This document shows, in pieces, positions 3,977 through 22,932 of a stretch of DNA of 64,000 nt; within the stretch, counting starts at the first letter, position 1; the number at the start of each line of letters is the position of its first letter. Source of the DNA: Sedimenticolaceae bacterium (GTDB lineage: Bacteria; Pseudomonadota; Gammaproteobacteria; Chromatiales; Chromatiaceae); the NCBI GenBank assembly GCA_963691905.1, contig OY829891.1, positions 293,795-357,794 on the forward strand, read 5' to 3'. A program made the translations under genes and the position numbers. Under the pieces are notes generated by a model. It had not been told where the DNA came from, ran no database searches, and worked only from the letters and a program-made list of their open reading frames with translations.

Positions 3977-6900
3977 ATGAAGTCCGGCAAACTGGTATGG
4001 ATCACTGATTTCAGTCACCTGTTTTCGTTTCGTTACCGATTAGGGCTGCCCTGGAAAAATCTCACTCCCTGTCTGTTATCTACCTTGCTGTTGATATTTA
4101 CCCCAACTGCTCTCTATGCAGCAGTGGGAGATACTACACGGGTCAGCGTGGACTCATCAGGGGCGGAAGCCAATGGTGAGAGTCCTAATCCCAGCATCTC
4201 CTCGGATGGGCGCTTTATTGCCTTTGAATCCGCTGCCAGCAATCTGGTGCCGAACGACAACAACAGCACCAACGATATCTTCGTCCATGATCGGGATAGC
4301 GGACAGACCACCCGAGTCAGTGTTGACTCCTCCGGGGTTGAAAGCAATGGCTGGAGTTTGTCTGCAGCTATCTCTGATGATGGCCGATATGTGACCTTTG
4401 ATTCGGCAGCCACCAATCTGCTCACCACCGATACCAATAACGCAAGAGACATCTTCGTCCATGACCGGACAACCGGCGTGACTACCCGGGTGAGCCTCGA
4501 CTCATCAGGAATTGAGGGGGGTTCTCACAGTATAACGCCAGCCATCTCATCAACAGGCCGGTTTGTCGCCTTTGCATCTTATGCCAGCAATCTTGTGCTG
4601 GATGATACCAACAGCAGAATCGATATCTTCGTCCATGACCGGGATACTGGAGAGACCACGCGCGTGAGCATGGATTCGTTCGGGGAACAGAGCAACAACA
4701 ACAGTAGCCTTCCTTCACTTTCTACAGATGGGCGTTACGTCGTCTTTGAGTCTGATGCCAGCAATCTGGTTCTGAATGATAGCAACAGTACCAGAGATGT
4801 CTTTGTCCATGACCGGGATACCGGAGAAACCACCCGGGTGAGCGTGAATTCGTCCGGGGCGGAGGGGGGTGACCTCAGTTCTTACCCAGCCATCTCCGGG
4901 GATGGTCGCTTTGTAACCTTTCAATCCCATGCCACCAATCTGGTCACAGGGGATACGAACGGCACTACGGATATTTTTGTGCATGACCGCGATACCCACG
5001 AGACCACCCGGGTGAGCGTGGATTCCTCCGGCACTCCGGCCAGCTTTTTGAGCTTTACCCCCGACATCTCCGCAGACGGTCGTTATGTCGCCTTTTCATC
5101 CATAGACCCTAACCTGGTGTCCGGGGATTTCAACGGTATGATGGATATTTTTGTGCATGACCGCGATACAGGCCAGACCTCCCTGGTGAGTGTCAGAGAC
5201 TCCGGTTCGCAAGGAGACGCCAGCAGCATCAACCCGGCCATATCCGCAGACGGGACGCATGTCGCCTTTGAATCCGAAGGCCGGATGGTGTTTGACGACT
5301 TCAATGGTGTGACCGATATCTTCGTCAACGAGTATATCGGTCCGATAGTGGTGCCCCCGCCCCCCACCGATGCCGACATGAGCGTGTCTCTTTCGGATGG
5401 CAGTGATCCTGTCGATGCAGGCTCGAATCTATCATTTTCTGTTACCGCCACCAATTCCGGGCCGGCGGACGCCACCAACGTAATGTTAAGCGTTGACCTG
5501 CCGGACAATGTGACTTTTATCAGCAGCCACGTTGTCTGCAGTGAATCTGCCAGTATCGTGAGTTGCGCCTTGGGTGACATAACATCCGGTGGCGGTAGCC
5601 AGGTCAGCATCCTGGTGACCGTCCCATTCACCGCGGGTCTCCTCACCACCACCGCCGAGGTGACGGCGGACCAGGTCGATTTGACAGCCGCCAATAACAG
5701 CGTCAGTGAAACCACTTCCGTTATCCTGCCGAACATCGAAATCATCGATTCCACTCTACCAATCGATGATCTGACGATCCTGTTCGGCACCCACCGGATC
5801 GGTGAGACTACCGATGAAATCGTCACCATCACCAACAACAGCCTCACCATGCCGGTCACCATCACCGTGATCGCCAACTCCCTGGAGGCGCCCTTTCAGG
5901 TGCTCGATCCGAACGGTTGTGACGGTGCCCCACTGGATGCCGGTTCCAGTTGCATCCTCACGGTGGAGTACGCCCCCACGATGACCGGCGATGCCAGCGA
6001 CACCTTGACCCTGGGGATCGGGGCGGACAGTGTGGATGTGGTCGTCAGAGGGACCGCTGTGGAGAACGCCGCCGATCTGGCGATCGGTAAGACCGCTGAT
6101 ATTCTCGTGGTCAGCCCGGGGGTCATAACCACCTTCACCCTCACGGTCACCAATCACGGACCGGATGCCGCCAGTGTGGTGGTCACCGATCAGCTGCCCG
6201 CCGGTATGGAGATTCCGGCAGGTATGTCGGCGGCAGCCAGTATCGGCAGCTACGATGAAACAACCGGCGAATGGAGTGTTGGCATATTGGATGTCACCCA
6301 GCCACCCGTGACGGAGACCCTGGAGATACCCGTTCAGGTGATCAGCGCTGAACACTGCATCACCAACACCGCGAGTGTCGCAATGGCGCCGGGTGAGACA
6401 TCTGTCGATACCAATAGCAGTAATAATAGTGACTCGGTAACCATCGGTACCTCAGACGGATGTGCGGATCTTTCGATGACAGGCGAAATAATCAATAACT
6501 TTTATTCGTCGAGCAGTGGAGGTGATTGCATCAATATAGTTGTTGAAGTCCGTGTCAGCAATCTGGGTCCCACAGCTGCTTCGGGCGTTATAATCCGGCA
6601 GAATCGTATTGTTTTCACAAGTAGCAGTAGCACTAAATACGAGTGTGAATCAGGTACAAGGCACGAACCAACGGTAGAGGAAGAGATCAATCTGGATAAC
6701 CTGGCTCCCGGTGAGTCCAAGACAGCCGTGCTTTTCTCTTATGAGGAAGCAGCATTCCCCGTGAAAGCAAGCATGAATCTCTCTCTCGATTATTCTGTGA
6801 CATCCGATAGTTTCGATTCCGATTTGAACAATAACCATTACATCGCGAGTAAATCATTTTCGAATACAGATACAACGATACAACTTGACGATCCGGGATG

Positions 6901-7987: not shown

Positions 7988-10900
7988 ATGAAATCATGGT
8001 CAAATCATCAGAACGAGATTCGGCTGACGAGTGACGCCAAACCAAGCAAAAGCACCCGCAACGACACCATGGAAAAAGAAGAAAAATCGATCATCCGCAT
8101 CTTCGTCGGCTCACCCGGTGATGTGGAAGAGGAGCGCAAGGCCGCCTTTGAGGTCATCGACCAGCTGAACAACCACCACTGGCGACCCCGCAACATTGCG
8201 GTAAAGGGTTACGGCTGGGACAATACCCACTACCCGAAACTGATCCCCAACTCACCACAGGCCGACATCGAAACCAGCCTGCCGAAGATGGCAGAGTACG
8301 ACATCTGCATCTTCATACTCTGCCATCGTCTGGGTACGCCGTTGGATGAGAGCTTTGCCCCCCTGGATGACGATGGCCGCCAGCCCACCGGTACCGAGTA
8401 CGAATTCTACAGTGCCCGGAATACAGAGACACCACCACAGATACTGCTATATCGGCGTGAAAAAGCGTTCTCTCTGCAACCCGATATGCCTCAAACTGAC
8501 CAAATAGAGGCTTTCGAACAATTCCAACTTGCGAATGCCTTCATCGAAAAAAACACCAAAGAAGGCAAAACCTTCACTGGCGACTACCACAAACACAAAA
8601 CAGACGACGACTTCAAAACACGCCTGGAGAAAGACCTCACTGCCCTGGTCAATCGACTGCTCAAGACACCCGCACAACCGGATAAACCCAAAACTGACCA
8701 ACCGGCGTCCATCCCCAGCAGCTACCTGAATTGGCTCAGACACAAAGCCAGCGATATCACTCTGCTCGGTCTCGACAACAAAGAGGCCCACAACGTCCGC
8801 CTGCCGCAAGTCTACGTCCCGGCAATCACCCCAACGCCCACAGAGGAAGGGGAAGAGAAAAAAGAACGCTGGGAAGTAGATCGAGAAGGCCATGATCTGT
8901 TACTGACGCGACTGAACCAGGACTCCCTCTACCTGCCGGGTGCGCCAGGCAGGGGCAAAACCACCTTCTGCAACTGGGTCTGTTGGGTTGTGGCCAGCAG
9001 TACCATCCCCGCCGACGACCACAAACTGGCCGCTGAATACCAAGAAGAACTACCGCAAGATCTGCTGGGCCGTCTGCCGGTCCTCTGCCGATTACGCGAA
9101 TTCTGGGGACACATGACATGCCGGAAGGACAACGGCGACTGGACCCGCACCCAACTTGAGACAGCCCTCTGCAACTGGCTCGACAAGAAAAAACCGGATG
9201 GTCTGACTTCAGCCCGCTTTCTGGAGCACCTGAAACGGGGTAACTGCCTGCTGATCATCGACGGCTTTGATGAAGTCCCGCCAAGCCGTGAGTACGATGG
9301 CCACATCGAATATCCCCGCGCCGCCCTGCTCTCAGGCCTGAAGAAGGCGCTGCCTCACTGGATCGAAGGCGGCAACCGCATCCTGCTCACCAGCCGCCCC
9401 TACGGTCTGAGTCCGGGTGAGCGTCAGGGACTGGGCCTTGCAGAGAGCGAACTCTCCGCCCTCACTGGCGGCCTGCAACGACTCTTCGTTCAACGCTGGT
9501 TCCATGCAGCAGACAGAGAGAAAGGGACAATAAAGGCCGACGGACTTCTGCAACAACTCGATGCCCGCCCCGACCTAAATGAGTTTCGTACCAACCCAAT
9601 GCTGCTGACCGCCCTCTGCGTGAAGTATGACGAAGGGAGCAGGCTGCCGAAAGATATCCACGATCTCTACAGTGCGGTGATAAACCAGGTACTACACAAC
9701 CGCTATCTTGACCGGGCGCATGAGGTGGCGAAGGTGCGGCGGCGACTGGGGGTCATCGCTTGGGAGATGCACAGCGGCGATCTGGCGGGTAAACAACGCA
9801 GCGTACCCGACGCGGAGATCCACGAAGAGGAGATCGAGGGGGTTTTGATAGACTATGCCCATTCCAAACCCCACGATGAGGGCGGTGAAGATGATGCCTC
9901 AGACAAGCGGGAAGACTTGCTCTCGCGCTCCGGTCTTTTACTGCCGACAGAAAACAATCAGGCGGAGTTCTATCACCTCAGCTTCCAGGATTTCCTCGCT
10001 GCAGAGCGTTTTGTCCGTTCTGGGCAATCGGTGGAGGATCTGGTCGCCTCCCATGCGGGCACATCCCAGTGGCGACAGACCCTGCTGTTTCTTTTCGCCC
10101 GGCTCACCAGCCGGGAGGATCTGGATACCGCCCTGGAGCGTTTCTCAGTACTGGGAGATTTTCTTGACCGGGATTCACTGCGCCAAAATCCACGCCCCGC
10201 CATTCTGTTGGGCGACTGTCTGGAGATCGCCCAGGCACGGGGAGAGATCGGCGAGTGGGGCATGGTCTATCGCCAGGCATGTTATACCGCACTGGAAGTG
10301 GTAAAGAGCCCGGAACATCGTGAAGCACTGTTTCGCGCCCTGGGAGCAGCCGGTCTTGATGATCGTCCAGGTGTGGGGCTGGATGAAAACGACCTGCCCG
10401 ATATCGCCTGGCAGGATATTCCGGCGGGTGAAGTTACCCTGTCCGGCAATGCGGGCAGTTTCCCGGTAGGGACCTTCCGCCTCTCCCGCTACCCCGTCAC
10501 CAACGCCCAGTTCCAGGCCTTTATCGATGATGACAAGGGGTATAAGAACCCTGAGTGGTGGGCAGACCTGGAGGTGGAACCGGGCAAACCTTTGTCCTCA
10601 CAGTGGAAGGAAGACAACCATCCCCGTGAAAGAGTCAGCTGGTATGAGGCAATGGCTTTCTGTGCCTGGCTATCCCACCGGCTGGGTTATCGGATGAGTC
10701 CACCGACAGAGTGGCAGTGGCAGCAGGCCGCCACCAGCGGCAATCCTGGGCAGGACTATCCGTGGGAAAAGGAGTACAAAAGTGGGCGGGCCAATATTGA
10801 TGAGACTTCTGGAGGTGCAGGTTCTCACTATCTGCGCCGAACCACGGCCGTGGGTATCTATCCTCAAGGTAATTCTGCGCAAAAGGTATCGGATCTTGCA

Positions 10901-11221
10901 GGAAACGTCTGGGAGTGGTGTCTGAATGAGCGTGATGAACCAGCAAATACACAGACCAGCGGTACGAAGCGGCGCGTGTTGCGCGGCGGGTCCTGGTTCT
11001 TCAATCTAGACAACGCCCGCGCGTCGATTCGCAACAACAACGAACCGGACAACCGTAACAACAATCTGGGTTTTCGGTTGAGTTGTTCGTCCCACATCGC
11101 CCCTGTTCTTCCTATTGCCGGTACTGCCTGCCGATCACGATTTGCAGGCCGAGGCGAAGAACGGATTGATGGCGCGGGATGGTCCCGTCCGCACTGTAAC
11201 AATACCGTCGGGCATATATAA
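7988..11221 (+). CDS. DUF4062 - NACHT (STAND NTPase) - FGE-sulfatase/C-type-lectin-fold protein; DGR target 1
   Basis: The N-terminus reads IRIFVGSPGDVEEER...TGTEYEFYSA (DUF4062-like). Walker A is GAPGRGKTT and Walker B is LLIIDGFDEVP (NACHT-like). The C-terminus reads RYPVTNAQFQAFI..HPRERVSWYEAMAFCAWL..GNVWEWC..RVLRGGSW...LGFRLSC (FGE/SUMF1-like). The likely true start is the ATG at 8069 (MEKEEKS). The last 48 codons after LSCSS look like read-through of non-coding DNA. Confidence 0.85.
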   Translation: MKSWSNHQNEIRLTSDAKPSKSTRNDTMEKEEKSIIRIFVGSPGDVEEERKAAFEVIDQLNNHHWRPRNIAVKGYGWDNTHYPKLIPNSPQADIETSLPKMAEYDICIFILCHRLGTPLDESFAPLDDDGRQPTGTEYEFYSARNTETPPQILLYRREKAFSLQPDMPQTDQIEAFEQFQLANAFIEKNTKEGKTFTGDYHKHKTDDDFKTRLEKDLTALVNRLLKTPAQPDKPKTDQPASIPSSYLNWLRHKASDITLLGLDNKEAHNVRLPQVYVPAITPTPTEEGEEKKERWEVDREGHDLLLTRLNQDSLYLPGAPGRGKTTFCNWVCWVVASSTIPADDHKLAAEYQEELPQDLLGRLPVLCRLREFWGHMTCRKDNGDWTRTQLETALCNWLDKKKPDGLTSARFLEHLKRGNCLLIIDGFDEVPPSREYDGHIEYPRAALLSGLKKALPHWIEGGNRILLTSRPYGLSPGERQGLGLAESELSALTGGLQRLFVQRWFHAADREKGTIKADGLLQQLDARPDLNEFRTNPMLLTALCVKYDEGSRLPKDIHDLYSAVINQVLHNRYLDRAHEVAKVRRRLGVIAWEMHSGDLAGKQRSVPDAEIHEEEIEGVLIDYAHSKPHDEGGEDDASDKREDLLSRSGLLLPTENNQAEFYHLSFQDFLAAERFVRSGQSVEDLVASHAGTSQWRQTLLFLFARLTSREDLDTALERFSVLGDFLDRDSLRQNPRPAILLGDCLEIAQARGEIGEWGMVYRQACYTALEVVKSPEHREALFRALGAAGLDDRPGVGLDENDLPDIAWQDIPAGEVTLSGNAGSFPVGTFRLSRYPVTNAQFQAFIDDDKGYKNPEWWADLEVEPGKPLSSQWKEDNHPRERVSWYEAMAFCAWLSHRLGYRMSPPTEWQWQQAATSGNPGQDYPWEKEYKSGRANIDETSGGAGSHYLRRTTAVGIYPQGNSAQKVSDLAGNVWEWCLNERDEPANTQTSGTKRRVLRGGSWFFNLDNARASIRNNNEPDNRNNNLGFRLSCSSHIAPVLPIAGTACRSRFAGRGEERIDGAGWSRPHCNNTVGHI
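10973..11093 (+). repeat. DGR repeat copy 1 (AAC-rich; VR of target 1 and/or TR-like)
   Basis: This 121-nt block matches the reverse complement of 12870-12990 at 108/121 positions. It encodes ...SWFFNLDNARASIRNNNEPDNRNNNLGFRLSCSS. Confidence 0.8.
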
Positions 11222-11260
11222 AAAAGGGGCGCTTCCCGGACACTGTTCCCGAAGCGCCCC
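11219..11260 (-). terminator. Rho-independent terminator of avd (U-run only on the minus strand)
   Basis: The stem is GGGGCGCTTC (11226-11235) paired with GAAGCGCCCC (11251-11260). An A6 run at 11220-11225 gives a T-run after the hairpin on the minus strand, just downstream of the avd stop at 11264. Confidence 0.7.
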
Positions 11261-11263
11261 GCC

Positions 11264-11617
11264 CTATCCATGATCCGTTCGGGCCTGCCGCAACCAGCCA
11301 CCTAATAGACGGCCGATCTCCGCCACCATCTCACTCACATGTTGATATTGCCCATGGCTCAGCCATTGCCATCTATGGATGAGTTTCAGATAGTTGCGAA
11401 GTCTTGACAGCGAAGCATCGGCGGATTGCAACGCCACCAATCGCTCACACCCCTGTTGTGCCTGTGCATCTCCCAAAGCCTCGTAAAGATCCAACCCCGA
11501 ATCCATAAGACGTTGTGTTACCGTGTGACGATAGACCCTTGGGAAACGCTCTGACTTTGGCAACAGCCAGTCGAGCAGGTCAAACACACGTACAAATATC
11601 ACCATCTCCTGTGTCAT
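11264..11617 (-). CDS. avd: DGR accessory variability determinant-like four-helix-bundle protein (Avd)
   Basis: 117 aa. The [25 protein letters not shown].. pattern fits the Avd / '23S rRNA IVS' four-helix-bundle family. A strong AGGAGG Shine-Dalgarno sequence lies 8 nt upstream of the ATG. The gene is adjacent to the DGR RT. Confidence 0.8.
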
Positions 11618-11621
11618 TCAG

Positions 11622-12698
11622 ATGTCCTCCTTTAGCACACTATTCAAACAAATCTGTGATTGGGAAAACCTGCTTATGGCCTACCGGAAGGCAGCCAGGG
11701 GCAAGCGCGGTCATCCCAACGTAGCGCAGTTTGATTTCAGACAGGCGGATGAGTTGCTAAGTCTTCGCAGCGAATTGCTTGCTGGAAATTACCGGCCCGG
11801 ACCTTATGTGAACTTCCATATTCACGAGCCCAAGCGGCGCAAAATCAGCGCCGCCCCTTTCCGCGACAGGGTAGTGCATCACGCACTATGTAATCTATTG
11901 GAACCCAGGTTCGAAAGACACTTCATTCCTGATAGTTACGCCAACCGGGTCGATAAGGGAACTCACCGGGCAGTGGATCGCTTGCAGGCATTCTCACAGC
12001 GTTTCCGCTACATACTGCGGGCGGACATCGTCAAACATTTCCCATCCATTGATCACACAGTTCTCAAGGAGATCCTGCATCGCCGAATTGAAGAGGATGA
12101 TGTCATGGTACTGGTTCGTACCATCATCGACAGTGGTGCCGGTGTGTTGGATGACGAATATGAGATGCAGTGGTTTCCGCAAGACGACCTGCTTGCTGCC
12201 TGCCGGCCGCGCGGCCTGCCCATCGGTAATCTGACATCACAGTTCTGGTCCAACTGCTACCTCGACCCTTTTGACCATTTCGTGAAACGTGAACTCGGCT
12301 GCAAAGCCTACCTGCGTTATGTTGATGACTTTGCCCTCTTCAGCAACAGCAAGGCAGAACTCTGGGCCTGGAAACGTGCAATCATCGAACGCCTGCAACG
12401 GTTTCGGCTGGTCATCCATGAATCTGCCGCTCAGGTTTTGCCGGTTGAGTGCGGAATTCCCTGGCTCGGCTTCGTGGTCTATCCGACTCACCGGCGCATC
12501 AAGGCACGTAAAGTACGTACTGCCACACGGCATTTAGCTGAACGGATGCAAGCCTGGAAACAGGGCAGGATCAGCTTCGCAGAACTTGACGCCTGCATTA
12601 ACGGCTGGGTCAACCATGTACGTTACGCTGACACCTGGGGACTACGCCGTTCTGTTTTCAACCGGCTTGCCACAAATGAGCGGGAAACCAAAATGTAG
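11622..12698 (+). CDS. DGR-type reverse transcriptase
   Basis: 358 aa with RT motifs: [34 protein letters not shown] (the DGR hallmark [ILV]GxxxSQ) and [12 protein letters not shown] (YxDD). Confidence 0.9.
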
Positions 12699-12762
12699 GA
12701 GCGGCGCCCTCGCCGCGATTTATCTATCTATGGAGTAATCGCGGCGGGGCGCCGCTCCTACA
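12694..12762. terminator. Long GC-rich palindrome (REP-like) between the convergent RT and target-2 genes
   Basis: TGTAGGAGCGGCGCCCTCGCCGCGATT-loop-AATCGCGGCGGGGCGCCGCTCCTACA forms a ~25-bp stem with one bulge. It overlaps the RT stop codon. It is a plausible bidirectional terminator. Confidence 0.6.
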
Positions 12763-12852
12763 GGTACCTTGCATGAAAATATTCGTCACCGCCGCTATCG
12801 CGGCAGATCAGTGAACAGAAAAGCAGTGATTCAGTGTTCAGAGCCACAGTGG

Positions 12853-15800
12853 TCAGTCTTTCTTGATGGGGGACGAACAACTCAACCGAAAACCCAGATT
12901 GTAGTAACGGGAGTCCGGTACGTTGTAGTAGCGAACCGACGCGCGGGCGTAGTCTTGATCGTAGAGCCAGGACCCGCCGCGCAACACGCGACTTTCCGTG
13001 CCGCTGGTTTGTGTATTGGCTGGATCGCCATACTCGTTCAGACACCATTCCCAGACGTTTCCTGCAAGATCTGACACCCCTTGCCCTGAGTTACCCTGGG
13101 GATAGATACCAACTGCCGTGGTTCGGCGCAGATAGTGAGAACCTGCACCTCTTACAGTCTCATCAATATTGGCCAGCCCTCTTTCGTACTCCGAACCCCA
13201 AGGGTAGTCCTGACCTGGATTGCCGCTCGATGCCGCCTGCTGCCACTGCCACTCAGTCGGCAGACTCACCGTGTATCCCAGCCGGTCGGAGAGCCAGGCG
13301 CAGAAGGCCATCGCCTCGTACCAGGAGACTGTCTCCCGAGGATGATTGGGTTCGCTCCAACTGGGCATTCCAGGTGTATCTGGCTTCTCATCCAGTTTCA
13401 CCCACCATTCGCGGTTTTGATATCCCTTGTCATCATCGATAAAGGTCTGGAACTGGGCGTTGGTAACCGGATAACTGGCCAGGTAAAAGTGTTCGACAGG
13501 GAAAGTACCTGCATCGTCCTCCAGGCTGACTTCATCGGCAGCGGGAATCTCACACCACTCAATATCAGGTAATCCATTTTTATCCAGCCCGACCCCGGGG
13601 CGTGGATCTCCGATGCCACCCAGCATCCTCCCCGCCTCGGTCCGTTCCTCGATTGTCAAAGCGGTGGAATCTTCGATGAGTTCGACAATGAGCCTGCGTA
13701 TCTTTTTACACTGACGGGGAAAGCCGGTGTCGTCCAGGCCAGTCAGCCCCAGTTCCATCAGGCTCAGGCCCGCCAATACCGAGACCTGGTGGCGGATGGT
13801 TTCGACCGCCTCTTCAGCAGTCTCCAGCATATCCTCGATGTAGCCGATGGCGGGGCGGGGTTTCTTGCGCTGCTCCAGAACCGCCAGCAGAAAGGTCTCC
13901 CGCCACCAGACCGGGTCGGTACAGACCTCGCGGCTCAGGGCGTCATCGGTGCGGGAACTGAGCCAGCCCATGGCCAGGTATTCCTGAAACGAGCGATGGG
14001 GAAAGGCATAGTGGTCCCTGCCACGGCTGATAAGGATACCGCTGTGCTGCTCCAGATAGGCCAGCAGGTCGTCCCTGCCCAATGTCGCCAGCAGGGGTTC
14101 AAAGACGTCCAGCAACTGGCTGCGGCTGATATTAGCGACACCGGTACTGTCGCGCTGCTCACGCTGGGTCTTGTGCGCCGACCAGGCAAGTCTCTGCAGG
14201 CATTCACGCAAGACCGGTTCCGGCAGGCTCAGGGGCTGACCATCGCAGTTTCGAAAACAGCGGTTGGCACGCCACTGGTAGAGCAGCAGGTTGACGCTGT
14301 CACGGTAGAGTTCAGCACGATCCTCCGGCAGGCTGCCGCCACTGGCGTGCAGGGTGGCGATGAGAGTCAGCAGCAGGGGACGACGGGCCAGTTCCCGCAG
14401 GTGTTCACGATTTTCGACCCGCTCCACCATATCAGGCACGCGAAGCTTCAAATCCTGTTCGCGCAGGCCGAATCGCTCTCTCGCCGCCCGATACCAGCCG
14501 TGGATGAACTGGCTTCGCTGTCCTTCATCAAATGGGGTGAGGAAGAGCGGGGTGAAACCGGACAGGCGCCAGCCGGGATCAGTGTATGCGTAGGGACGGG
14601 CGGTCAACATGAAACGGGTCGACGCCGGCAGCTCTTCCACCAGCGCACGAATCGCCTGCAACAGGTGAGTACGGCGCTCACCGGCGGCAGGTACCTCGTC
14701 GAGTCCGTCGAGCAGGATCATTCCCCCTGGGTTCTCGTTCAGTCGATGACGCAGGGCGCTCACCACTTGCGGGGCTTTTTTGCCCCTGCCTTGGGCGCTG
14801 CCTTCCAGCAGGTCACGGATATCCGCCTCCAGCGCCTGCCACAGCCACTTGGCACTTCCCACTTTGGCGTTGCCGGGGATCTCAACCTGCCGCAGGACGA
14901 TACGCACAGGAATCCTGCCCTGAAGTAGATCAGGCAGTTCGGCATCCGCCTTATTCGCAGACAACTGCCAGGCGAGCTGGTTGACCAGGGCCGACTTGCC
15001 TGCGCCAGGATCGCCGATCAACACCGCGTGGGATTCACGGGCCAACAGATCGAGAACCGGCACGGGTTCACCACTTTTGCCTTCGGTCATTTTGCGAATG
15101 TGGTCTGGAACCTCTTCGTCCTGCTCCAGCCACTTTTCCGGTGGAGCAACGGCCTTCAGAGGAACAAAGATATCCGGCAGGCGGATGGGGTCGGCTGGCT
15201 GTTCCAGACCCTGACGGGCGTCCAGCACCTCCAGGGGAAGCCGGGCGCAGTCGACGGCCTGGATGCGTAACCACTCTGCCAGGAGTTGGTCGTCCGGCGG
15301 CGGGTCGGGTGGGTCACCGGTGCCGTCGCCCTGCTGGTTCCAGGGCTTTTTCGGATCGTTGAGCCATTGATTGAGATCACGCGCCAGCAGCACGGGGAAG
15401 TCGTCAGTGGTTTCGAAATTTGCGGTGAAGAGTTGGTCTTCGCCTTCCTTGTTCAGGTGCGCTCTGAAAGCATCAACCTCTCGTTTCTGGTTTAGGATTC
15501 CGGCCAGTTCGTCGGTATCCGTGGGTGGTCCACCCTTTTCCCAACCGTTGCGGAAGAACCATTTGATCTCCGGGTAGTCGCCATGCGCCCGACGAATATT
15601 CATGGCGACAGTGAACTCCTCCTCGGTGCCTGAGTTGAAGTCACCAGTCGGTGTGCCAAAACGCTGCCCCAGCAGGCCAATAACCAGTGCAAGGGAAGGT
15701 CTGAATTTGATTAAGGTCTGTTGAGTGATCAGCGCTTGGGGACGACCAACGCCAATATCGGTCTGGTTTTCCCAGTCGATAAGATCGAACTGAAAACCCC

Positions 15801-15930
15801 TGGGATTGGCGGTATCCCGATTGTAGGCCTTGAAAAAATCACGCACCGCCTGGCGCTCTTCGGCCATATCGCCGGGTGAGGCGAGGAACACATGATAGAT
15901 CTTGCGATCAGCGGGTTTCGGCGACGACAT
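12853..15930 (-). CDS. DUF4062 - NACHT (STAND NTPase) - FGE-sulfatase/C-type-lectin-fold protein; DGR target 2
   Basis: 1025 aa. The N-terminus reads KIYHVFLASPGDMAEER...SGTEEEFTVA. Walker A is GDPGAGKS and Walker B is MILLDGLDEVP. The C-terminal FGE-like domain is collinear with target 1 and ends ...SWLYDQDYARASVRYYNVPDSRYYNLGFRLSCSSPIKKD. Confidence 0.85.
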   Translation of the reverse strand: MSSPKPADRKIYHVFLASPGDMAEERQAVRDFFKAYNRDTANPRGFQFDLIDWENQTDIGVGRPQALITQQTLIKFRPSLALVIGLLGQRFGTPTGDFNSGTEEEFTVAMNIRRAHGDYPEIKWFFRNGWEKGGPPTDTDELAGILNQKREVDAFRAHLNKEGEDQLFTANFETTDDFPVLLARDLNQWLNDPKKPWNQQGDGTGDPPDPPPDDQLLAEWLRIQAVDCARLPLEVLDARQGLEQPADPIRLPDIFVPLKAVAPPEKWLEQDEEVPDHIRKMTEGKSGEPVPVLDLLARESHAVLIGDPGAGKSALVNQLAWQLSANKADAELPDLLQGRIPVRIVLRQVEIPGNAKVGSAKWLWQALEADIRDLLEGSAQGRGKKAPQVVSALRHRLNENPGGMILLDGLDEVPAAGERRTHLLQAIRALVEELPASTRFMLTARPYAYTDPGWRLSGFTPLFLTPFDEGQRSQFIHGWYRAARERFGLREQDLKLRVPDMVERVENREHLRELARRPLLLTLIATLHASGGSLPEDRAELYRDSVNLLLYQWRANRCFRNCDGQPLSLPEPVLRECLQRLAWSAHKTQREQRDSTGVANISRSQLLDVFEPLLATLGRDDLLAYLEQHSGILISRGRDHYAFPHRSFQEYLAMGWLSSRTDDALSREVCTDPVWWRETFLLAVLEQRKKPRPAIGYIEDMLETAEEAVETIRHQVSVLAGLSLMELGLTGLDDTGFPRQCKKIRRLIVELIEDSTALTIEERTEAGRMLGGIGDPRPGVGLDKNGLPDIEWCEIPAADEVSLEDDAGTFPVEHFYLASYPVTNAQFQTFIDDDKGYQNREWWVKLDEKPDTPGMPSWSEPNHPRETVSWYEAMAFCAWLSDRLGYTVSLPTEWQWQQAASSGNPGQDYPWGSEYERGLANIDETVRGAGSHYLRRTTAVGIYPQGNSGQGVSDLAGNVWEWCLNEYGDPANTQTSGTESRVLRGGSWLYDQDYARASVRYYNVPDSRYYNLGFRLSCSSPIKKD
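12870..12990 (-). repeat. DGR variable repeat (VR) of target 2
   Basis: This is the 121-nt partner of 10973-11093. TAC/TCC/GAT/GTT/GTA codons occur where copy 1 has AAC/AAT/ATT/GAA. Confidence 0.85.
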
Positions 15931-16012
15931 GTTCTTCCCTGATTACAACAGTGGAATATAACCTACGGATCTTTTGTTGGAAATTCAATTCCGTACATCT
16001 CAGGATCATCAG

Positions 16013-16094
16013 CATCTCGACCACGGGAAGGGGTCTCCTGCTTGCATCCCGTTGGCAGCAATGTAGCACGAGATCTCTCCCCACGGTCGAGATG
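16013..16094 (-). other. Conserved structured intergenic element, copy A (18-bp stem hairpin on the minus-strand transcript)
   Basis: On the minus strand, CATCTCGACCGTGGGGAG...CTTCCCGTGGTCGAGATG pairs over 18 bp with G-U wobbles. It lies between the DUF4157-A stop and the target-2 start. The same element is at 18445-18526 with a compensatory pair change. Confidence 0.5.
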
Positions 16095-16141
16095 ACAAAT
16101 GATCAGGGATATCGCAGGTAATGCGGAATCAGACAACCCCA

Positions 16142-18019
16142 TCAAGGCCCGGCCGCCGCACCGACCAGACCCAGCACACTCTCGCCGGAGAGACCATCGA
16201 GCGCGGTTTGAGTGCCTCTAGCGTAGTTTGGATGCGCATCAATGGCATTTTCAAGATTAGTGGTAATATTCGCCTCGCTCATCGCCAGCGCTGCCGCGAC
16301 ATTCGCTTCTGAAACGGAGGGATCCTGCACGATAATTCGGCTGCATATGTCCCGATAATGCGCAGTATTACCCTTTGCCGCCAAGACCATTGCCCATTGC
16401 AGCAGAGCGCTGGTGGCTGATCTTCTGTAACCGCGAATGGCCGCAGGTTGTTCTGCAGCCGGGAGCGCCAAGATCTCATCCATTATATATCGCATCTGGC
16501 TGGTATAGGCCCGTGCCTCGAGTTCAAGCACACGGCGTTGTGTGATACCTGCACTCGCGGCGTCATCGGCGGCGTGGGTCAATTCATGGATGACCAGTGC
16601 TCGCGAATCAATCGCCGCAACGTCCAGATTGGTCGGCAGATAGAGCGTATCCCCTTTTTCCTGGTCTCTCCTGCCTATCGGTGAGTAGAAGGCACCGGCG
16701 CCATTACCTGATGTCAAACTCCGGAAGGCACGGGGGATCAGGGCATCGATCTTTATCTGACCACTCCTGATCTGTCCTGCGGTAGAGTGACCTGCTGTCC
16801 GGGCGATGACATAGACGATCCCGGCCATTACTTTATCCCCCGAACTACTGTCGGATGCCGCATTCAACATCGCACCCAATACTTCAAGGGAGGGAATGCT
16901 GTGTGTTTCCATATAGGCAATCAATGCAGTCGCCTGTCTCTGGAACTGCGGACCGGCGTGTCGAAGAATCTCTGTGGTTGCCGCCGCATCAGCCTCAGCC
17001 AATAAGACCATTCCACGTTCAAGATCAACACCCAATGTCGTGATGGCTGTCCACAACTGCAGAATGAGAGCATCCGGTATCTGCTCCCGTCCGATATTTC
17101 GCACACGTTCACGGTTGGCCGCAGTGATGGTGTTGATTACGATACTCAGCGTCCCGGTTCCGTGCGCCTGAAGCAATGGGACATTGACCGGATTGAGCAT
17201 CGACGCCATCAAGAGCCGTTCCGCATGGGTAACCGTACCGCGAACCTGCAACGCGTAGATACGCAGTGCATTGAGCTCGTTATCCGTCAGGGCGCCATCA
17301 CCGACAAAACGTTTTATGCGTCTGAAGAAGCCCGCCGTGATACCGCTGCCGACCCGGAACAGATAGTTACCGGTAGGCACGTTTGCCGCATCGAGCTCAA
17401 TCTCCCGCTGGACTATGGAAAACCGTTGTAGGCCTCCAGCGCCACGATTCTGTTGCACCACATGAGTCAACTCATGGGCCAGCAGGTGTTTTCCGGTTTT
17501 CGTCTCGGGATTGTACTTTCCTGAGTTGAAATAGATGTCTTTCCCGTGGGTAAACGCCTGGGCACCGACAGCCCGGTTCAGGCTGGCGGATTCACTGTCT
17601 GTGTGTAGCCGCACATCACTGAAATCGAAACCCAGCGACTGCGACATCTCCCTATGGGTTGGTGTTGGCAGTCTACTGCCGCTTCCCTTGGTGGATTGCA
17701 ATCTGGCAGCCATGCCGACTGGCGCGGAGGGTACAGCTGGCCGGTGACCGGCCCGTCGTTGAATGGCGAAGAAGCCCTGCTGTTGCGGGGATAAAGCGTG
17801 TTCAGAACGCTGGACAACTGCAGTGGCGACGCTGTCGGCTTCCTTCTCATACTGATCGCCGGGCTGTCCGATCGTCAGCTTTGTCTGAAAGAACGCGCCC
17901 TGCTGAGACCTCTGCCCCGATGCCTTGCCGGTATGGGAGAAAAAAGGTTGCTCCTGCCTGTCAATCGCTTGGATTCCACGCCGCCTGCGTGGACGATACG
18001 CTCTAATGTCCCTGTTCAT
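16142..18019 (-). CDS. DUF4157 (zincin-like) domain protein, paralog A
   Basis: 625 aa. The N-terminal layout is typical of DUF4157: FFQTKLTIGQPGDQYEKEAD...FGFDFSDVRLHTD...AFTHGKDIYF...LLAHELTHVVQQ. A second HExxH (VIHELTHAADD) lies in the C-terminal half. Confidence 0.8.
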   Translation of the reverse strand: MNRDIRAYRPRRRRGIQAIDRQEQPFFSHTGKASGQRSQQGAFFQTKLTIGQPGDQYEKEADSVATAVVQRSEHALSPQQQGFFAIQRRAGHRPAVPSAPVGMAARLQSTKGSGSRLPTPTHREMSQSLGFDFSDVRLHTDSESASLNRAVGAQAFTHGKDIYFNSGKYNPETKTGKHLLAHELTHVVQQNRGAGGLQRFSIVQREIELDAANVPTGNYLFRVGSGITAGFFRRIKRFVGDGALTDNELNALRIYALQVRGTVTHAERLLMASMLNPVNVPLLQAHGTGTLSIVINTITAANRERVRNIGREQIPDALILQLWTAITTLGVDLERGMVLLAEADAAATTEILRHAGPQFQRQATALIAYMETHSIPSLEVLGAMLNAASDSSSGDKVMAGIVYVIARTAGHSTAGQIRSGQIKIDALIPRAFRSLTSGNGAGAFYSPIGRRDQEKGDTLYLPTNLDVAAIDSRALVIHELTHAADDAASAGITQRRVLELEARAYTSQMRYIMDEILALPAAEQPAAIRGYRRSATSALLQWAMVLAAKGNTAHYRDICSRIIVQDPSVSEANVAAALAMSEANITTNLENAIDAHPNYARGTQTALDGLSGESVLGLVGAAAGP

Positions 18020-18139
18020 GATATCGGTGTTTTTTCAGATCCATCCTTAAAAGGTAGACCACTATTCACTGATCTGCCCGTAGAAGCGCTGCCCCGGCAC
18101 GATCCGGCGTGGGGGGGGAATACAGGCGCCTTTTCGCCG

Positions 18140-18361
18140 CGAGGGCGAGGAGAGTTTGGGGTCAGTTCCTGGGGGCGGCCGACACCGATGGTGGAGTGGT
18201 TTTCCCAATCGATGAGATCGAACTGAAGCCCCTGGGATTAGCGGCATCCCGATTGCAGGCCTTGAAAAATCATGCACCGCCTGGCGCTCTTCAGCCATGT
18301 CGCCGGGTGAGGCGAGGAACACATGATAGATCTTGCGATCAGCGGATTTCGGCGACAACAT
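18140..18361 (-). pseudogene. 5' fragment of a DUF4062-NACHT gene (frameshifted and truncated)
   Basis: The first 31 codons (MLSPKSADRKIYHVFLASPGDMAEERQAVHDF) parallel the target-2 N-terminus. Nucleotide homology then continues in another frame (..FDLIDWENHSTIGVGRP). It ends at about 18140, where the duplication junction lies. Confidence 0.8.
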
Positions 18362-18444
18362 GGTTCATCCCTGGCTACAACGGTGGAATATAACCTACGG
18401 ATCTTTTGTTGGAAATTCAATTCCGTACATCTCAGGATCATCGG

Positions 18445-18526
18445 CATCTCGACCGCAGGAAGGGGTCTCCTGCTTGTATCCCGTTGGCAGCAATGTAGCA
18501 TGAGATCTCTCCCTACGGTCGAGATG
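18445..18526 (-). other. Conserved structured intergenic element, copy B
   Basis: The hairpin is the same 82 nt as 16013-16094. A G-C pair in copy A is replaced by A-U, and a G-U pair by G-C. Confidence 0.5.
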
Positions 18527-18573
18527 ACAAATGATCAGGGATATCGCAGGTAATGCGGAATCAGACAACCCCA

Positions 18574-20451
18574 TCAAGGCCCAGCCGCATCACCGACCAA
18601 ATCCAGCACACTCTCACCGGAGAGGCCATCGAGCGCCACGAAGGTACCTCTGGTGTAGTTAGGAAGTTCCGCAATGGCGTCTTCGAGTCTTGTGGTGATA
18701 TCCGCAACACTCAACGCCAAAGCAGCCATAACATTCGCTTCCGATACGGTGGGATCCTGTAGCAGGATACGCGTGCAAATCTCCTGATAACGCGCAGTAT
18801 CCCCTTTTGTCGCCGATATGAGTGCCCATTGAACCCATTCGCTGGCGGCCGATAGCCTGTACTCACGGATGACCGCTGGTTGCCCGGCTGCCGGGAGTGC
18901 CAGGATCTCATCCATCGTGTATTGCAACTGGCGGGTACGAGCCCGAGCCTCGAACTCAAGCACCCGCTGGTGAGTGATGCCCCCGGATGCTGCGTCATCG
19001 GCAGCGTGAGTCAGCTCATGGATGACCAGTGACCGCGAGTCGATAGACGCAACGTTCAGACTGGTCGGCAGATAGAGCGTATCTCCCTTTGCCTCATCGG
19101 TCCTGCCTACTGATGAATAGAACGCAGCAGAACCGTCACCTGAGGTGATACGCCGGTAGGCACGGGGTATAAGCGCATCGACCTTTATTTGACCGCTTCT
19201 GATCTGCCCCGCAGTGGCGTGGCCTGCCTTCCTGGCGATGACATAGACGATCCCGGCCATCACCTTATCGCCGGAACTGCTGTCGGAGGCCGCATTCAAC
19301 ATCGCACCCAATACCTCCAGGGCGGGAATAGTGTGCATCTGCATGTAGGCAATCAGTGCAGTCGCCTGTGTTTGGAATTGTGGACCGGCGTGCTGCAGGA
19401 TCTCTCTGGTTGCCGCCGCATCGACCTCTGCCAATAACGCCAGTCCACGTTCAAGATCGACGCCCAATGTGGTAACGGCATCCCATAACTGCAGCATGAG
19501 GGCATCCGGTATCTGTTCGCGTCCTATATCGCGAGCATGCTGACGGTTGGCATCGGTGATCGTGTTGATCGGAATGGAGAGGGCACCCGTCCCATGAGCC
19601 TGAAGCAATGGAACATTGACAGCGTTGAGCATCGCCGCCATCAAGAGCCGCTCAGCGTTGTTGACTGAACCTCTGACCCGTAGTGCATAGATACGCAGTG
19701 CATTGAGTTCATTATCCGTCAGCGCGCCATCACCGACAAAACGTTTTATACGCGTGAAGAAGCCTGCAGTGATACCGCTGCCAACCCGAAACAGATAGTT
19801 ACCGGTAGGCACATTTGCCGCATCGAGCTCAATCTCCCGCTGGATCATTGAAGTCCGTTGCAGGCCTCCAGCGCCACGATTCTGTTGCACCACATGAGTC
19901 AACTCATGGGCCAGCAGGTGTTTTCCGGTTTTCGTCTCGGGATTGTACTTTCCCGAGTTGAAGTAGATGTCTTTCCCGTGGGTAAACGCCTGGGCACCGA
20001 CAGCCCTGTTCAAGTTGACGGATTCACTGTCTGTGTGTAGCCGCACATCACTGAAGTCGAAACCCAGCGACTGCGACATCTCCGTGTGGGTTCGTTTTGG
20101 CAGTCTACTGCCGCTTCCCTTGGAGGATTGCAATCTGGCAGCCATACCGGCGGGAGCAGAAGGTGCGACTGCCCGGTGACTCGCCCGACGTTGAATGGTG
20201 AAGAAACCCTGCTGTTGCTGTGATGAAGCGTGTCCAGAACGCTGAACAACTGCGGTGGCGACGTTGTCGGCTTCCTTCTCATACTGATCGCCGGGCTGTC
20301 CGATCGTCAGCTTTGTCTGAAAGAACGCACCCTGCTGAGACCTCTGCCCCGATGCCTTGCCGGTATGGGAGAAAAACGGTTGCTCCTGCCTGTCAATCGC
20401 TTGGATTCCACGCCGCCTGCGTGGACGATACGCTCTAATGTCCCTGTTCAT
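18574..20451 (-). CDS. DUF4157 (zincin-like) domain protein, paralog B
   Basis: 625 aa and collinear with paralog A. The first 62 residues are identical, and divergence rises toward the C-terminus. Both HELTHVVQQ and HELTHAADD are retained. Confidence 0.8.
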   Translation of the reverse strand: MNRDIRAYRPRRRRGIQAIDRQEQPFFSHTGKASGQRSQQGAFFQTKLTIGQPGDQYEKEADNVATAVVQRSGHASSQQQQGFFTIQRRASHRAVAPSAPAGMAARLQSSKGSGSRLPKRTHTEMSQSLGFDFSDVRLHTDSESVNLNRAVGAQAFTHGKDIYFNSGKYNPETKTGKHLLAHELTHVVQQNRGAGGLQRTSMIQREIELDAANVPTGNYLFRVGSGITAGFFTRIKRFVGDGALTDNELNALRIYALRVRGSVNNAERLLMAAMLNAVNVPLLQAHGTGALSIPINTITDANRQHARDIGREQIPDALMLQLWDAVTTLGVDLERGLALLAEVDAAATREILQHAGPQFQTQATALIAYMQMHTIPALEVLGAMLNAASDSSSGDKVMAGIVYVIARKAGHATAGQIRSGQIKVDALIPRAYRRITSGDGSAAFYSSVGRTDEAKGDTLYLPTSLNVASIDSRSLVIHELTHAADDAASGGITHQRVLEFEARARTRQLQYTMDEILALPAAGQPAVIREYRLSAASEWVQWALISATKGDTARYQEICTRILLQDPTVSEANVMAALALSVADITTRLEDAIAELPNYTRGTFVALDGLSGESVLDLVGDAAGP

Positions 20452-20608
20452 TATATCGGTGTTTTTTCAGATCCTCCCTTAAAAGGTAGACCACTATTCA
20501 CTGATCTGCCCGTAGAAGCGCTGCCCCGGCACGATCCGGCGTGGTGGTGGAATACAGGCGCCTTTTCGCCGCGGGGGGCGGCTCCTACAAAGTGTAGTCG
20601 GACTGTCG

Positions 20609-21592
20609 TCACACATTCTCAAGCAGTTTGGTGACTTGTTCCTCAAGCTCTTCCGGGCTTTTATGCAACCGTTTGGAATAGAGCCAGTTCACATGGGTAC
20701 CGACATTGAGCAGACCGGTTTGAGCCTTGGCACGGTCACGGGCACGCACTGGTAAATTTTGACTCAAGGATTCGCGCCACTGTATAAGCCTTCCGCGTTT
20801 GCGTGTCTTTTCACCATCCAGCACACAAAACAGCTGCCGTTGTGTCACGGCAAGCCAAGTACGTTGTTTAATGGTGCGGAACAGCAGCACTCCATCGACG
20901 ACGGATTCTCCAGTCTCGCAGAATCCGGACTCGTCTATCAGTTTACGTACACCGTTCCAGGTATAGAATTCGTTGCCAGAGGCATTCCTCTCCTTAAACG
21001 GCTCTGTATAGATGGGTTGTGTGGAAATGGAGGCAGCAATGATCTCCTCGACAATTTCTGCCTCTTCCTCCACCAACTCCTGACCACTCCGTTCGCTCTC
21101 CAGTTGTTCATCGATGCGCAGGGAAAATTCAACAAGTTTTTGCTCCCATTCATGCTTTGGCAGTTCCGACATTGCCTGCCCCGCATCAAATATCTGAATC
21201 TCCTGCAACCAAGCGGTTTCGCGCCACAGACAGGGGCGGATGATGAGTGGAAAAATAGCGAGTTCGCCACTGTTGGAACGGTCGATCAATAATGGCAGTT
21301 CCTGTTCGAGGATAAACTCAGAAGCCAAAAAGTCGGTCGAAACCAACAACACAGCCACCCTCGCCTGCCGGATGGCATCCTCTATCTCAGGCTTCCAGTT
21401 GCTGCCGAGATCGATCTGTTTGTCCGACCAGGCGCGATAGTGAAATCTGGCATTCTGATACAGGTTCCCACTCTTCAGATCCAGCGATTTCAAACGGGTA
21501 AACTTGAGAGAGTCCAGAAAGGCGATAAGCCGCTCATGCCAGTCATCATCGAGATGACTATAGGAGACGAATATATTTATTTCCTTACTCAT
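20609..21592 (-). CDS. TIR domain protein with an uncharacterised C-terminal domain
   Basis: 327 aa. The N-terminus reads INIFVSYSHLDDDWHERL...IEDAIRQARVAVLLVSTDFLASEFILEQEL (TIR_2-like). I could not assign the C-terminal ~130 aa. Confidence 0.8.
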   Translation of the reverse strand: MSKEINIFVSYSHLDDDWHERLIAFLDSLKFTRLKSLDLKSGNLYQNARFHYRAWSDKQIDLGSNWKPEIEDAIRQARVAVLLVSTDFLASEFILEQELPLLIDRSNSGELAIFPLIIRPCLWRETAWLQEIQIFDAGQAMSELPKHEWEQKLVEFSLRIDEQLESERSGQELVEEEAEIVEEIIAASISTQPIYTEPFKERNASGNEFYTWNGVRKLIDESGFCETGESVVDGVLLFRTIKQRTWLAVTQRQLFCVLDGEKTRKRGRLIQWRESLSQNLPVRARDRAKAQTGLLNVGTHVNWLYSKRLHKSPEELEEQVTKLLENV

Positions 21593-21671
21593 TGGTCTTT
21601 ACTTTTAACTCAAGTTTCCGAGTTTGTGGTGGTAATTGGCATGGGGCGTGGCTTCTCTAAATGTGACGAAC

Positions 21672-21730
21672 GTAGGGTGCGCCGTGCGCGCCATGATTGC
21701 TGCTTGTTCTGGTGCGCACGGCGCACCCTG
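21672..21730. repeat. REP unit GTAGGGTGCGC...GCGCACCCT
   Basis: This is a palindromic unit. A related copy lies at 30904-30963. Confidence 0.6.
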
Positions 21731-21804
21731 CCAGACCGTGTTCGCGGCGAGGCGCCGCACCTACGGGTGGTTCATGCTGTTCATACCATTATTGTTGTCA
21801 GTCG

Positions 21805-22932
21805 CTACCAAAGCATAACAGCCGTTTCACCTGCCGCATTGGCCCAGTAAAGACGAACGCGGAGAATATAGGTTGTGCCTTTCATCAGTCGATGCTCGAT
21901 TTTGGCGTTGTAGTCAGAACCGCTGTCATCATCGGCTTGAAGATAGATGGGATCATCGGTCCCGTCATCCTCAAAAAGCACCATCAACGTATCGGCTTCT
22001 CCAAAAGACTGCATGGTGTATTTACGGGTTGTTTTTGGCTTGATAACCAGATTCACCTGCCCACCCGCTTCAATCTGAATGACTTCAGACTGAAATGGCG
22101 TCAGATCAACATAATCTTTTTTTCTCAGCGCCGGATAGAAATGCTGTACCCAGGCTTTGTCTTTGGAAGACAGGCCGGCAGCCGGATGAATACCCACAGA
22201 ATCATAGGGAGACGGCCCTTCAATCAGGGCAGCACGGAATTCGTAATGCATGATGGAGTTGCTGTCCCAACCCGAACCTTCCACATCACTTTCAGAAACC
22301 GCGTCCAGAATATTGCGGTCGATTTTTCTGCGACTCCAGTTATTCGGTGGCCCGCTAAAATAGTCGTAGACCCCCTGCCTGTTCCACTGAATACCCGAAA
22401 ACGGGTTCTGATGTTCATGTTTGCCACCGAGGGAATGGCCAATCTCATGCAGCGCCGTATCCTTGCCGTGGGATGTCGTCAACGACCAGCCAAAGTTCAT
22501 CGTCCGCCGGTTTTTTGAAACATTGCCCATCGGGTAGGTGCCGATATATGACCAGGAACCTTCGTCCTGATCAAAGCCGATCCTGATTTCAGCTTCATCG
22601 AGATTTCTTACCTCAACAAATTCAAGACCTATACCCAGATCTTTCCACTCCTTAAAGGCTTTTCTCACCGCACGCTTGTCAGCGGCACTGCCTGTCCATT
22701 TTTCCGGCGAATCATGTTTCGCGTGTTCGAAAAAACAGTAGTGGATAACCGTACCGTTTACCCAGATGTTATCCATGTCCAGGATAAATGCAGCCCGTCC
22801 CGGATCGACATCCTGCGGCACTTGGCGCAGTGCCATTTCCGGCATATCACAAAATTTACGACCCGCTTTTTCCGCTTTGGAAGCACTCACCTTCTTGGTC
22901 CTTCTTACGCGTGTTTTTTTCTTGATTACCAT
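21805..22932 (-). CDS. Astacin-like (metzincin, M12-type) zinc metallopeptidase with PPC-like C-terminal domain
   Basis: 375 aa with HEIGHSLGGKHEH (HExxHxxGxxHE) and an SIMHY Met-turn. The C-terminal ~100 aa resembles a pre-peptidase C-terminal domain. The N-terminus is basic (KKKTRVRRTKK) with no obvious signal peptide. Confidence 0.7.
   Translation of the reverse strand: MVIKKKTRVRRTKKVSASKAEKAGRKFCDMPEMALRQVPQDVDPGRAAFILDMDNIWVNGTVIHYCFFEHAKHDSPEKWTGSAADKRAVRKAFKEWKDLGIGLEFVEVRNLDEAEIRIGFDQDEGSWSYIGTYPMGNVSKNRRTMNFGWSLTTSHGKDTALHEIGHSLGGKHEHQNPFSGIQWNRQGVYDYFSGPPNNWSRRKIDRNILDAVSESDVEGSGWDSNSIMHYEFRAALIEGPSPYDSVGIHPAAGLSSKDKAWVQHFYPALRKKDYVDLTPFQSEVIQIEAGGQVNLVIKPKTTRKYTMQSFGEADTLMVLFEDDGTDDPIYLQADDDSGSDYNAKIEHRLMKGTTYILRVRLYWANAAGETAVMLW

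Follow-up and report, generated by a model that had tools for sequence, protein, structure and literature searches.

Does a reverse transcriptase (RT) encoded between two NACHT NTPase genes on opposite strands diversify both of them, and from which template? This question is raised by a locus in a 64-kb stretch of a Sedimenticolaceae bacterium genome (contig OY829891.1; the whole stretch is called the window here, coordinates are positions in it, and + is the forward strand), for which a preliminary description had proposed a diversity-generating retroelement (DGR) with two targets. The locus consists of four open reading frames (ORFs), which we found at the positions claimed for them: gene1 (7988-11221, +; a 1077-aa ORF whose true start is probably Met27 at 8066), avd (11264-11617, -; 117 aa, on the strand opposite to the template repeat and the RT), the RT gene (11622-12698, +; 358 aa) and gene2 (12853-15930, -; 1025 aa). 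We consider it highly probable that the locus is a chromosomal DGR of the lineage that hypermutates paired, NLR-like NACHT proteins with a C-type lectin (CLec) fold at the C-terminus, that a single target is present in the window, and that gene1 ends in a chimera of its own variable repeat and the template repeat (VR1::TR), with gene2 as the acceptor.

The RT carries the DGR motif IGNLTSQ together with YVDD, as had been described. Its best match in the PDB was the bRT of the Bordetella phage BPP-1 (8ub7_A, E 4e-54); group II intron RTs followed at E 3e-19, and retron-type RTs gave weaker matches than these. The preliminary description had made its reading depend on the RT not being of the retron, group II intron or Abi kind, and the nearest solved relative by sequence match is indeed a DGR RT, so that we class the enzyme on its sequence as DGR-type. 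Retron, group II intron and defence RTs were considered as candidates and rejected, since the PDB ranking favoured BPP-1 bRT and the NCBIfam maturase score was far below its cut-off. The Avd-like protein encoded beside the RT scored 65.4 bits against Pfam bAvd (gathering score 40) and 75.9 bits against NCBIfam DivGenRetAVD, slightly below that model's cut-off of 80, and it matched the BPP-1 bAvd structures 4dwl and 8ub7_B (PDB bAvd E 2e-4). The motifs, the PDB and bAvd matches, and the adenine-biased repeat pair dealt with below together bear out the view of the element as a DGR that has an Avd and an RT of DGR type.

The products of gene1 and gene2 are paralogues over their full length (35% identity). 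Both exceeded the Pfam NACHT cut-off of 26.7 (32.5 bits for gene1, 37.9 bits for gene2), and the Walker A motifs of the two proteins read GAPGRGKT and GDPGAGKS. Both also matched the Pfam FGE-sulfatase model (E 1e-40 for gene1 and 2e-42 for gene2), and the C-terminal domain matched solved FGE structures as well as TvpA of Treponema denticola (PDB 2y3c, E 4.5e-12), as anticipated for an FGE/CLec fold. The architecture that the two proteins were said to share was thus recovered in its NACHT and FGE-sulfatase parts and in the paralogy itself, but not in the DUF4062-like N-terminus, for which gene2 reached 21.8 bits (cut-off 24.7) and gene1 gave no match in the profile search. The N-termini of both proteins matched the N-terminus of the PADLOC candidate PDC-S60, and a sequence search found no PDB relative of this domain. 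A weak match to the NCBIfam EruA NACHT antiphage model was seen as well.

The template had never been located in the preliminary description. Gene1 and gene2 share a 495-nt inverted repeat (83% identity), and a 126-nt repeat is present in only two copies in the window, at 10973-11098 in gene1 and 12865-12990 in gene2. A low-stringency blastn search of the whole 64 kb found neither a third copy nor a separate TR, and the intergenic gaps, being only 42, 4 and 154 nt long, leave no room for one. The copies differ at 14 positions; at 11 of these the gene1 copy has an adenine (binomial P = 8e-6), and at the remaining three the TRs of relatives have A. All 14 mismatches fall on codon positions 1 or 2, and the copies agree fully over the first 24 nt of the repeat and over 33 nt close to its 3' end. 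The 400 nt upstream of the repeat contain 91 mismatches (28 A, 19 C, 22 G and 22 T), 50 of them at codon position 3, which is ordinary paralogue divergence; an adenine bias upstream of the repeat, as a sign of cDNA read-through into the gene1 body, was looked for and not found. Since there are just two copies, with adenine-biased differences and no third, they represent one donor and one acceptor rather than two VRs. The donor is the gene1 copy, because it carries AAC AAC AAC, GAC AAC and AAC AAC AAT; in all it retains 27 adenines, with nine AAC/AAT codons among its content.

The 3' ends of the two repeats agree with this assignment. In DGRs, the initiation-of-mutagenic-homing sequence (IMH) stands at the 3' end of the VR, and its TR counterpart is termed IMH*. 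In the window and in two related loci (L001 and L002, introduced below), a fixed difference separates TRs, ending in TCCC-A-CATC, from VRs, ending in TCCC-C-CATC. The AAC-rich 126-nt gene1 copy (+) is of the former type, with its A at 11094, and the gene2 copy (VR2, -) is of the latter type and is the sole competent VR in the window. By analogy, we regard the A/C difference as an IMH*/IMH-like asymmetry with a putative role in homing. The earlier claim that both repeats were VRs of two targets is therefore not upheld: the gene1 copy has the A at 11094, is followed by a spacer RNA and lacks the element that follows VRs. Likewise, hypervariation near the C-terminal end stood up in so far as the mismatches are concentrated in the 126-nt repeat, but the gene1 copy is a TR and not a VR. 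VR2 lies at the C-terminus of gene2, the place of its FGE-sulfatase match, as expected if the C-terminal FGE/CLec fold of a NACHT NTPase is diversified. Since the gene1 copy is the TR, adenine-linked polymorphism is to be expected at 12865-12990 only, and not at 10997-11062.

The arrangement in relatives clarified what the window has retained. Two isolates of the Lamellibrachia anaximandri tubeworm endosymbiont (L001 and L007) encode RTs 92% identical to that of the window, and the best RT match in a scan of a genome collection was likewise at 92% identity. A Sedimenticola metagenome-assembled genome (MAG; JBEVXT01) contains a locus whose RT is 84% identical (L002), and the other closest RT homologues are on assorted metagenome contigs. 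A further, syntenic locus comes from the Escarpia spicata endosymbiont (L019, GCA_003349915.1). In the closest homologues the order is target1(+) with VR1, about 180 nt, TR(+), spacer, avd(-), RT(+), and target2(-) with VR2. The distance from VR1 to TR is 276-340 nt, start to start, in eight relatives (L001, L002, L004, L008, L009, L010, L016 and L019). Two VRs with one TR and RT were found in L001, L002, L004, L007, L008 and L010, and VR1 and TR were seen with no VR2 in L009, L016 and L019. When metagenomes were scanned with the 3' end of the TR, L016 was the one contig retrieved, and its architecture is canonical. In L001 and L002 together, 80 of the 82 in-repeat TR-VR mismatches were at TR adenines. 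One RT serving two targets on opposite strands, as had been proposed for the window, is thus the ancestral arrangement seen in relatives, but the window sequence itself contains one VR only.

Two of these genomes deserve separate mention. The Sedimenticola MAG that contains L002 also has a second DGR of the same architecture (L008), with an RT 67% identical to that of the window. In the E. spicata endosymbiont the syntenic locus (L019, 8432-11589) is decayed: target1 is split into ORFs of 518 and 142 aa, VR1 and TR are still separate, and a Y1 (IS200/IS605) transposase is found in place of avd, RT and target2.

Conserved elements flank both repeats in the window. Immediately 3' of the TR lies a structured spacer RNA (11095-11213, +) of a kind conserved after every TR, presumably the element that recruits RT-Avd and primes synthesis. 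Among eight loci (the window, L001, L002, L004, L008, L009, L010 and L016), 89% of cells were paired and 24 of 44 pairs showed compensatory double changes, values that were matched by none of 500 shuffles and by no slid register. Its invariant blocks are CCGAGGCG, GTCCG and GGGC, and it belongs to no known Rfam family. Each VR in L001 and L002, and VR2 in the window, is followed by a conserved element of about 75 nt, terminating in a hairpin that is GC-rich and has the loop GATA. The stem of this hairpin in L002 bears one compensatory change, from G:C to A:T. In the window the element is present as a single copy, after VR2 only (12789-12864, -, including the hairpin CTGCCGC-GATA-GCGGCGG at 12789-12806). 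It follows that the window has an intact template side, comprising spacer, avd, RT and the 3' part of the TR, and one intact target side, that of VR2.

Evidence of activity came from the two L. anaximandri symbiont isolates. Over 13 kb they are 98.8% identical, with 16 differences in VR1 and 17 in VR2; 31 of these 33 positions are at TR adenines, and the TRs themselves are identical. Since the isolates differ at TR adenines in both VR1 and VR2, the DGR family is active in nature, and on both targets. Two lineage-specific non-adenine substitutions (CGC and ATT, where L001 has CGT and ATC) are common to TR and VR2 of the window, which indicates that homing still took place after divergence from the L001 lineage. 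Outside the VRs, mismatches between L001 and L007 had hot spots at 4200-4600, 8400-8600 and 16600-17074, corresponding to a PD40/DUF11 surface-type protein, the CLec body of target1 and the TIR gene region. Gene conversion between paralogues was considered for the CLec-body hot spot (L001 8400-8600 against L007) and rejected, as no consistent pattern emerged.

Two other accounts of the repeats can be judged from these data. According to the preliminary description, the repeats are two VRs of two targets and the TR lies somewhere outside the window. Three mismatches at which gene1 has T and gene2 has A or C look as expected for VRs written from an adenine-bearing template, but the gene1 copy still contains 27 adenines and nine AAC/AAT codons, its A at 11094 is specific to TRs, the conserved spacer RNA of TRs comes after it, its identity to the L001 TR is 95%, and it is without the post-VR element; moreover, the TR occupies exactly this position in every relative. 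This account is already contradicted by the sequence, and we regard it as very improbable. Alternatively, there would be no retroelement activity at all, and the C-termini would be those of ordinary diverging paralogues beside an unrelated RT of retron, group II intron or defence type. The top NCBIfam match of the RT is a group II intron maturase, as such a view would have it, with 127 bits, far below the cut-off of 300. BPP-1 bRT is nevertheless by far the closest structural relative, an Avd is present, and differences between the sister-lineage isolates are confined to the VRs. The mismatch spectrum, adenine-specific and at codon positions 1 and 2, is unlike that of the upstream gene body and already contradicts ordinary divergence, which leaves this account hardly credible. 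The reading in which a DGR has its TR in gene1 and its VR in gene2 is the one that we pursue.

How, then, did gene1 come to end in a TR? Its repeat together with the 3' flank is 95% identical to the TR and spacer of L001, and in blast comparisons the single gene1 repeat aligned to both VR1 (9044-9169) and TR (9350-9475) of L001. Alignment to L001 and L002 showed that the 5' flank of the repeat is the target1 body, which runs directly into TR and spacer, and that the 306 nt separating VR1 from TR in L001 are not in the window. Because these 306 nt are missing, gene1 is fused in frame to the TR. At 10997, 11000, 11001 and 11007 (+) the gene1 repeat has T where the L001 and L002 TRs have A; since T replaces A at these four positions, about the first 35 nt of the repeat derive from VR1, with 10997-11007 marking the VR1-derived 5' part of the chimera. 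The last 83 or so codons of gene1 are encoded by TR and spacer and not by a VR. In the sequence as it stands, gene1 thus ends in an in-frame VR1::TR chimera followed by 40 spacer-read codons, and, with all target-defining features absent from it, is not a target in the window. A similar junction was observed on two unrelated metagenome contigs, L017 (JGI 3300057030, 2080 nt) and L018 (JGI 3300076037, 1156 nt), where a CLec ORF runs into a purely Asn-rich TR with a ...SHI... end, followed by the spacer and an antisense avd.

Recombination between direct repeats and collapse of the repeats during assembly could each have produced the fusion, and to us they are about equally probable. A real deletion is favoured by the presence of direct repeats at a distance of 306 nt, which are prone to recombine. 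If the fusion is an artefact, the organism has a canonical gene1 with VR1, about 180 nt, TR and spacer, and the assembler jumped from a heterogeneous VR1 to the invariant TR. We place this possibility a little short of an even chance. The fused arrangement is unique among close relatives, eight of which keep VR1 and TR separate, two of these being genomes of tubeworm symbionts with about 90% identity to the window; the chimeric TR has left no trace in VR2; and rapid VR turnover in relatives makes it likely that VR1 is heterogeneous in the population. The short-read contigs L017 and L018, with the same fusion of body, TR, spacer and avd, also fit, because hypervariable VR1 paths may be dropped from assembly graphs. 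On the other hand, nine related MAG or metagenome loci (L001, L002, L004, L007-L010, L016 and L019) were correctly assembled at this point, and the locus is decaying in the sister lineage L019, where the IS200/IS605 transposase replaces avd, RT and target2. The junction also lies inside the variable part, past four VR-type T residues, so that the jump would need a stretch of identity between VR1 and TR, as would a real crossover. If the artefact is true, the biology is that of a canonical two-target element with both NACHT-CLec genes as targets, as originally proposed. That the 306 nt are truly and permanently lost from an element that nevertheless works, with a full-length, translated NLR-like gene doubling as the DGR template, seems unlikely to us. 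Were it so, the 3' end of the gene1 mRNA would be the TR and spacer RNA and would drive hypermutation of the opposite-strand paralogue, the donor protein would display an unmutated, Asn-rich 'germline' binding site, and the L017 and L018 fusions would mark a recurrent natural path from two-target DGRs to pairs of donor and acceptor genes.

Several points weigh against our own reading of a DGR with a chimeric donor and gene2 as acceptor. At three of the four positions where the chimeric TR has T, VR2 does not, so that full-length homing has not occurred after the fusion, which is then very recent, disabling to the element, or an artefact. The evidence of activity comes from isolates of a sister lineage and not from population reads of the window genome. 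Unlike in BPP-1, avd is antisense between TR and RT, which makes the transcript architecture uncertain. Finally, an anti-phage or sensor role of NACHT-CLec proteins is putative everywhere, and a sensor function is ascribed to them here by analogy with the proposal of Doré et al. (PMC10907252).

On the reading with gene1 as donor and gene2 as acceptor, the element may work as follows. By analogy with BPP-1, a plus-strand RNA containing the TR (10973-11098) and the structured spacer (11095-11213) would recruit RT-Avd, and cDNA would be primed in the spacer and made across the TR, with random misincorporation opposite adenines. The cDNA would then replace VR2 (12865-12990) at the 3' end of gene2, with the VR-type 3' end and the GATA-loop hairpin beyond it as probable guides. 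The result would be the randomisation of about a dozen codons of the CLec ligand surface in an intracellular STAND NTPase, a putative antigen sensor. Spacer priming and the role of the hairpin are assigned by analogy with the BPP-1 mechanism (PMC12875486).

The comparison with BPP-1, whose DGR has the order mtd-avd-TR-brt and whose RT and Avd are homologous to those described here, can be drawn further. Both systems show adenine-specific transfer from TR to VR, a VR/TR difference at the 3' end of the repeat (IMH against IMH*), a structured spacer 3' of the TR, and, downstream of the VR, a GC-rich hairpin whose loop is 4 nt long. In BPP-1 this hairpin is 4 nt from the VR end, whereas in the window it is about 60 nt away. 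The window element also differs in being chromosomal rather than phage-borne, in having an intracellular NTPase instead of a tail fibre as target, in its inverted avd between spacer and RT, and in an ancestral form with two inverted targets. For BPP-1 it has been reported that the spacer recruits bRT-Avd and primes cDNA, and that an inverted repeat after the IMH promotes homing (PMC12875486).

Closer in targets and architecture are the clade 5D DGRs of multicellular bacteria described by Doré et al. 2024 (PNAS, PMC10907252), in which the paired targets each consist of a central NACHT or nSTAND1 NTPase and one diversified FGE-type CLec. These authors often found peptidase or TIR genes beside such DGRs, observed degenerate loci as well, and proposed that the targets are antigen sensors (PMC10907252). 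Kaur et al. 2020 (PMC7159879) had linked DGR-diversified FGS domains to NTPase conflict systems. NACHT/nSTAND-CLec DGR pairs are therefore already known (PMC10907252) and were anticipated (PMC7159879), and the preliminary description overrated the novelty of the locus. The clade 5D DGRs, among them Thiohalocapsa PB-PSB1 DGR 3 and DGR 6, have peptidase and TIR neighbours as found here, and share the occurrence of degenerate loci, and several related DGRs per genome have been reported for Thiohalocapsa. The likeness to clade 5D is drawn from architecture and targets. In contrast to the two targets of that architecture, the window has a single VR, the gene1 repeat being the TR, so that one target is fused to the TR; the host differs as well, being an apparently unicellular chemosynthetic symbiont lineage. 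Lamellibrachia, Escarpia and Sedimenticola are not named in the text or tables of Doré et al. (PMC10907252), and a literature search found no study dedicated to these symbionts; one review mentions both DGRs and tubeworms.

Two further systems share parts of this design. Bacterial NACHT/Avs antiviral STAND NTPases are likewise built of three parts, an N-terminal domain, a NACHT P-loop and a variable sensor at the C-terminus. Here, by comparison, the sensor would be a DGR-diversified CLec instead of TPR or other repeats, no characterised effector domain was recognised, the N-terminus being at most weakly DUF4062-like with a match to PDC-S60, and a function in defence is putative. TvpA of T. denticola, a DGR variable protein (2y3c), resembles gene2 in its FGE-type CLec fold and C-terminal VR, and differs in being a surface lipoprotein without an NTPase.

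Transcription of the locus may be bounded by two further hairpins. A GC-rich hairpin at 11226-11260 (GGGGCGCTTC...GAAGCGCCCC), conserved in L001 and L002, is followed by a T-run on the minus strand and by none on the plus strand, and its sequence looks like an intrinsic terminator for avd. A long hairpin at 12695-12761 (stem of about 29 bp, DNA fold z = -7.8) sits where the RT gene and gene2 converge, overlapping the stop codon of the former, and is probably a bidirectional terminator; Rfam gave palindrome-type microRNA-precursor matches to it on both strands, all below the gathering score. Promoter and terminator scans gave results at chance level. The start codons of the divergent avd and RT (11617/11622) were 4-5 nt apart in the window, in L001 (9995/10001) and in L002, with gaps of 16 nt in L003 and 45 nt in L004. 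Given these divergent starts, either avd and the RT gene each contain the promoter of the other, or the RT is made from a TR transcript that reads on through avd in antisense.

Upstream of gene2, the syntenic neighbours occupy 16142-22932 (-). They comprise two 625-aa eCIS_core (DUF4157) genes in tandem duplication (16142-18019 and 18574-20451, -), a TIR-domain protein (20609-21592, -) and an astacin-like metallopeptidase (21805-22932, -). The same neighbours adjoin the DGR in L001 and L019, with one eCIS_core gene in L001 and two in L019. This neighbourhood fits the picture of Doré et al., and its genes are possible effectors or partners. The tandem duplication (15729-16511 against 18162-18943, period 2432 nt) also yields a truncated copy of the gene2 5' end (18062-18361, -). 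Gene2 and its truncated duplicate are each closely preceded by an inverted repeat with 30-nt arms and 22 nt between them (16013-16042/16065-16094 and 18445-18474/18497-18526).

The known mechanism of DGRs is unchanged by these findings, which bear instead on where DGRs occur and how they are recognised. A covariance model built on the structure of the spacer RNA could help to locate TRs in this lineage of DGRs. For annotation the locus is a caution, since a TR may hide in a target-like ORF and collapse of VR and TR may mimic or create one-target elements; it also illustrates how such loci decay. The sister isolates offer a clean natural example in which both VRs are rewritten while the rest of the genome is 98.8% identical. 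The vestimentiferan-symbiont/Sedimenticola lineage is added to the hosts of DGR-diversified NLR-like sensors, and, being intracellular, dense and clonal but not multicellular, it bears on the published link between such systems and multicellularity.

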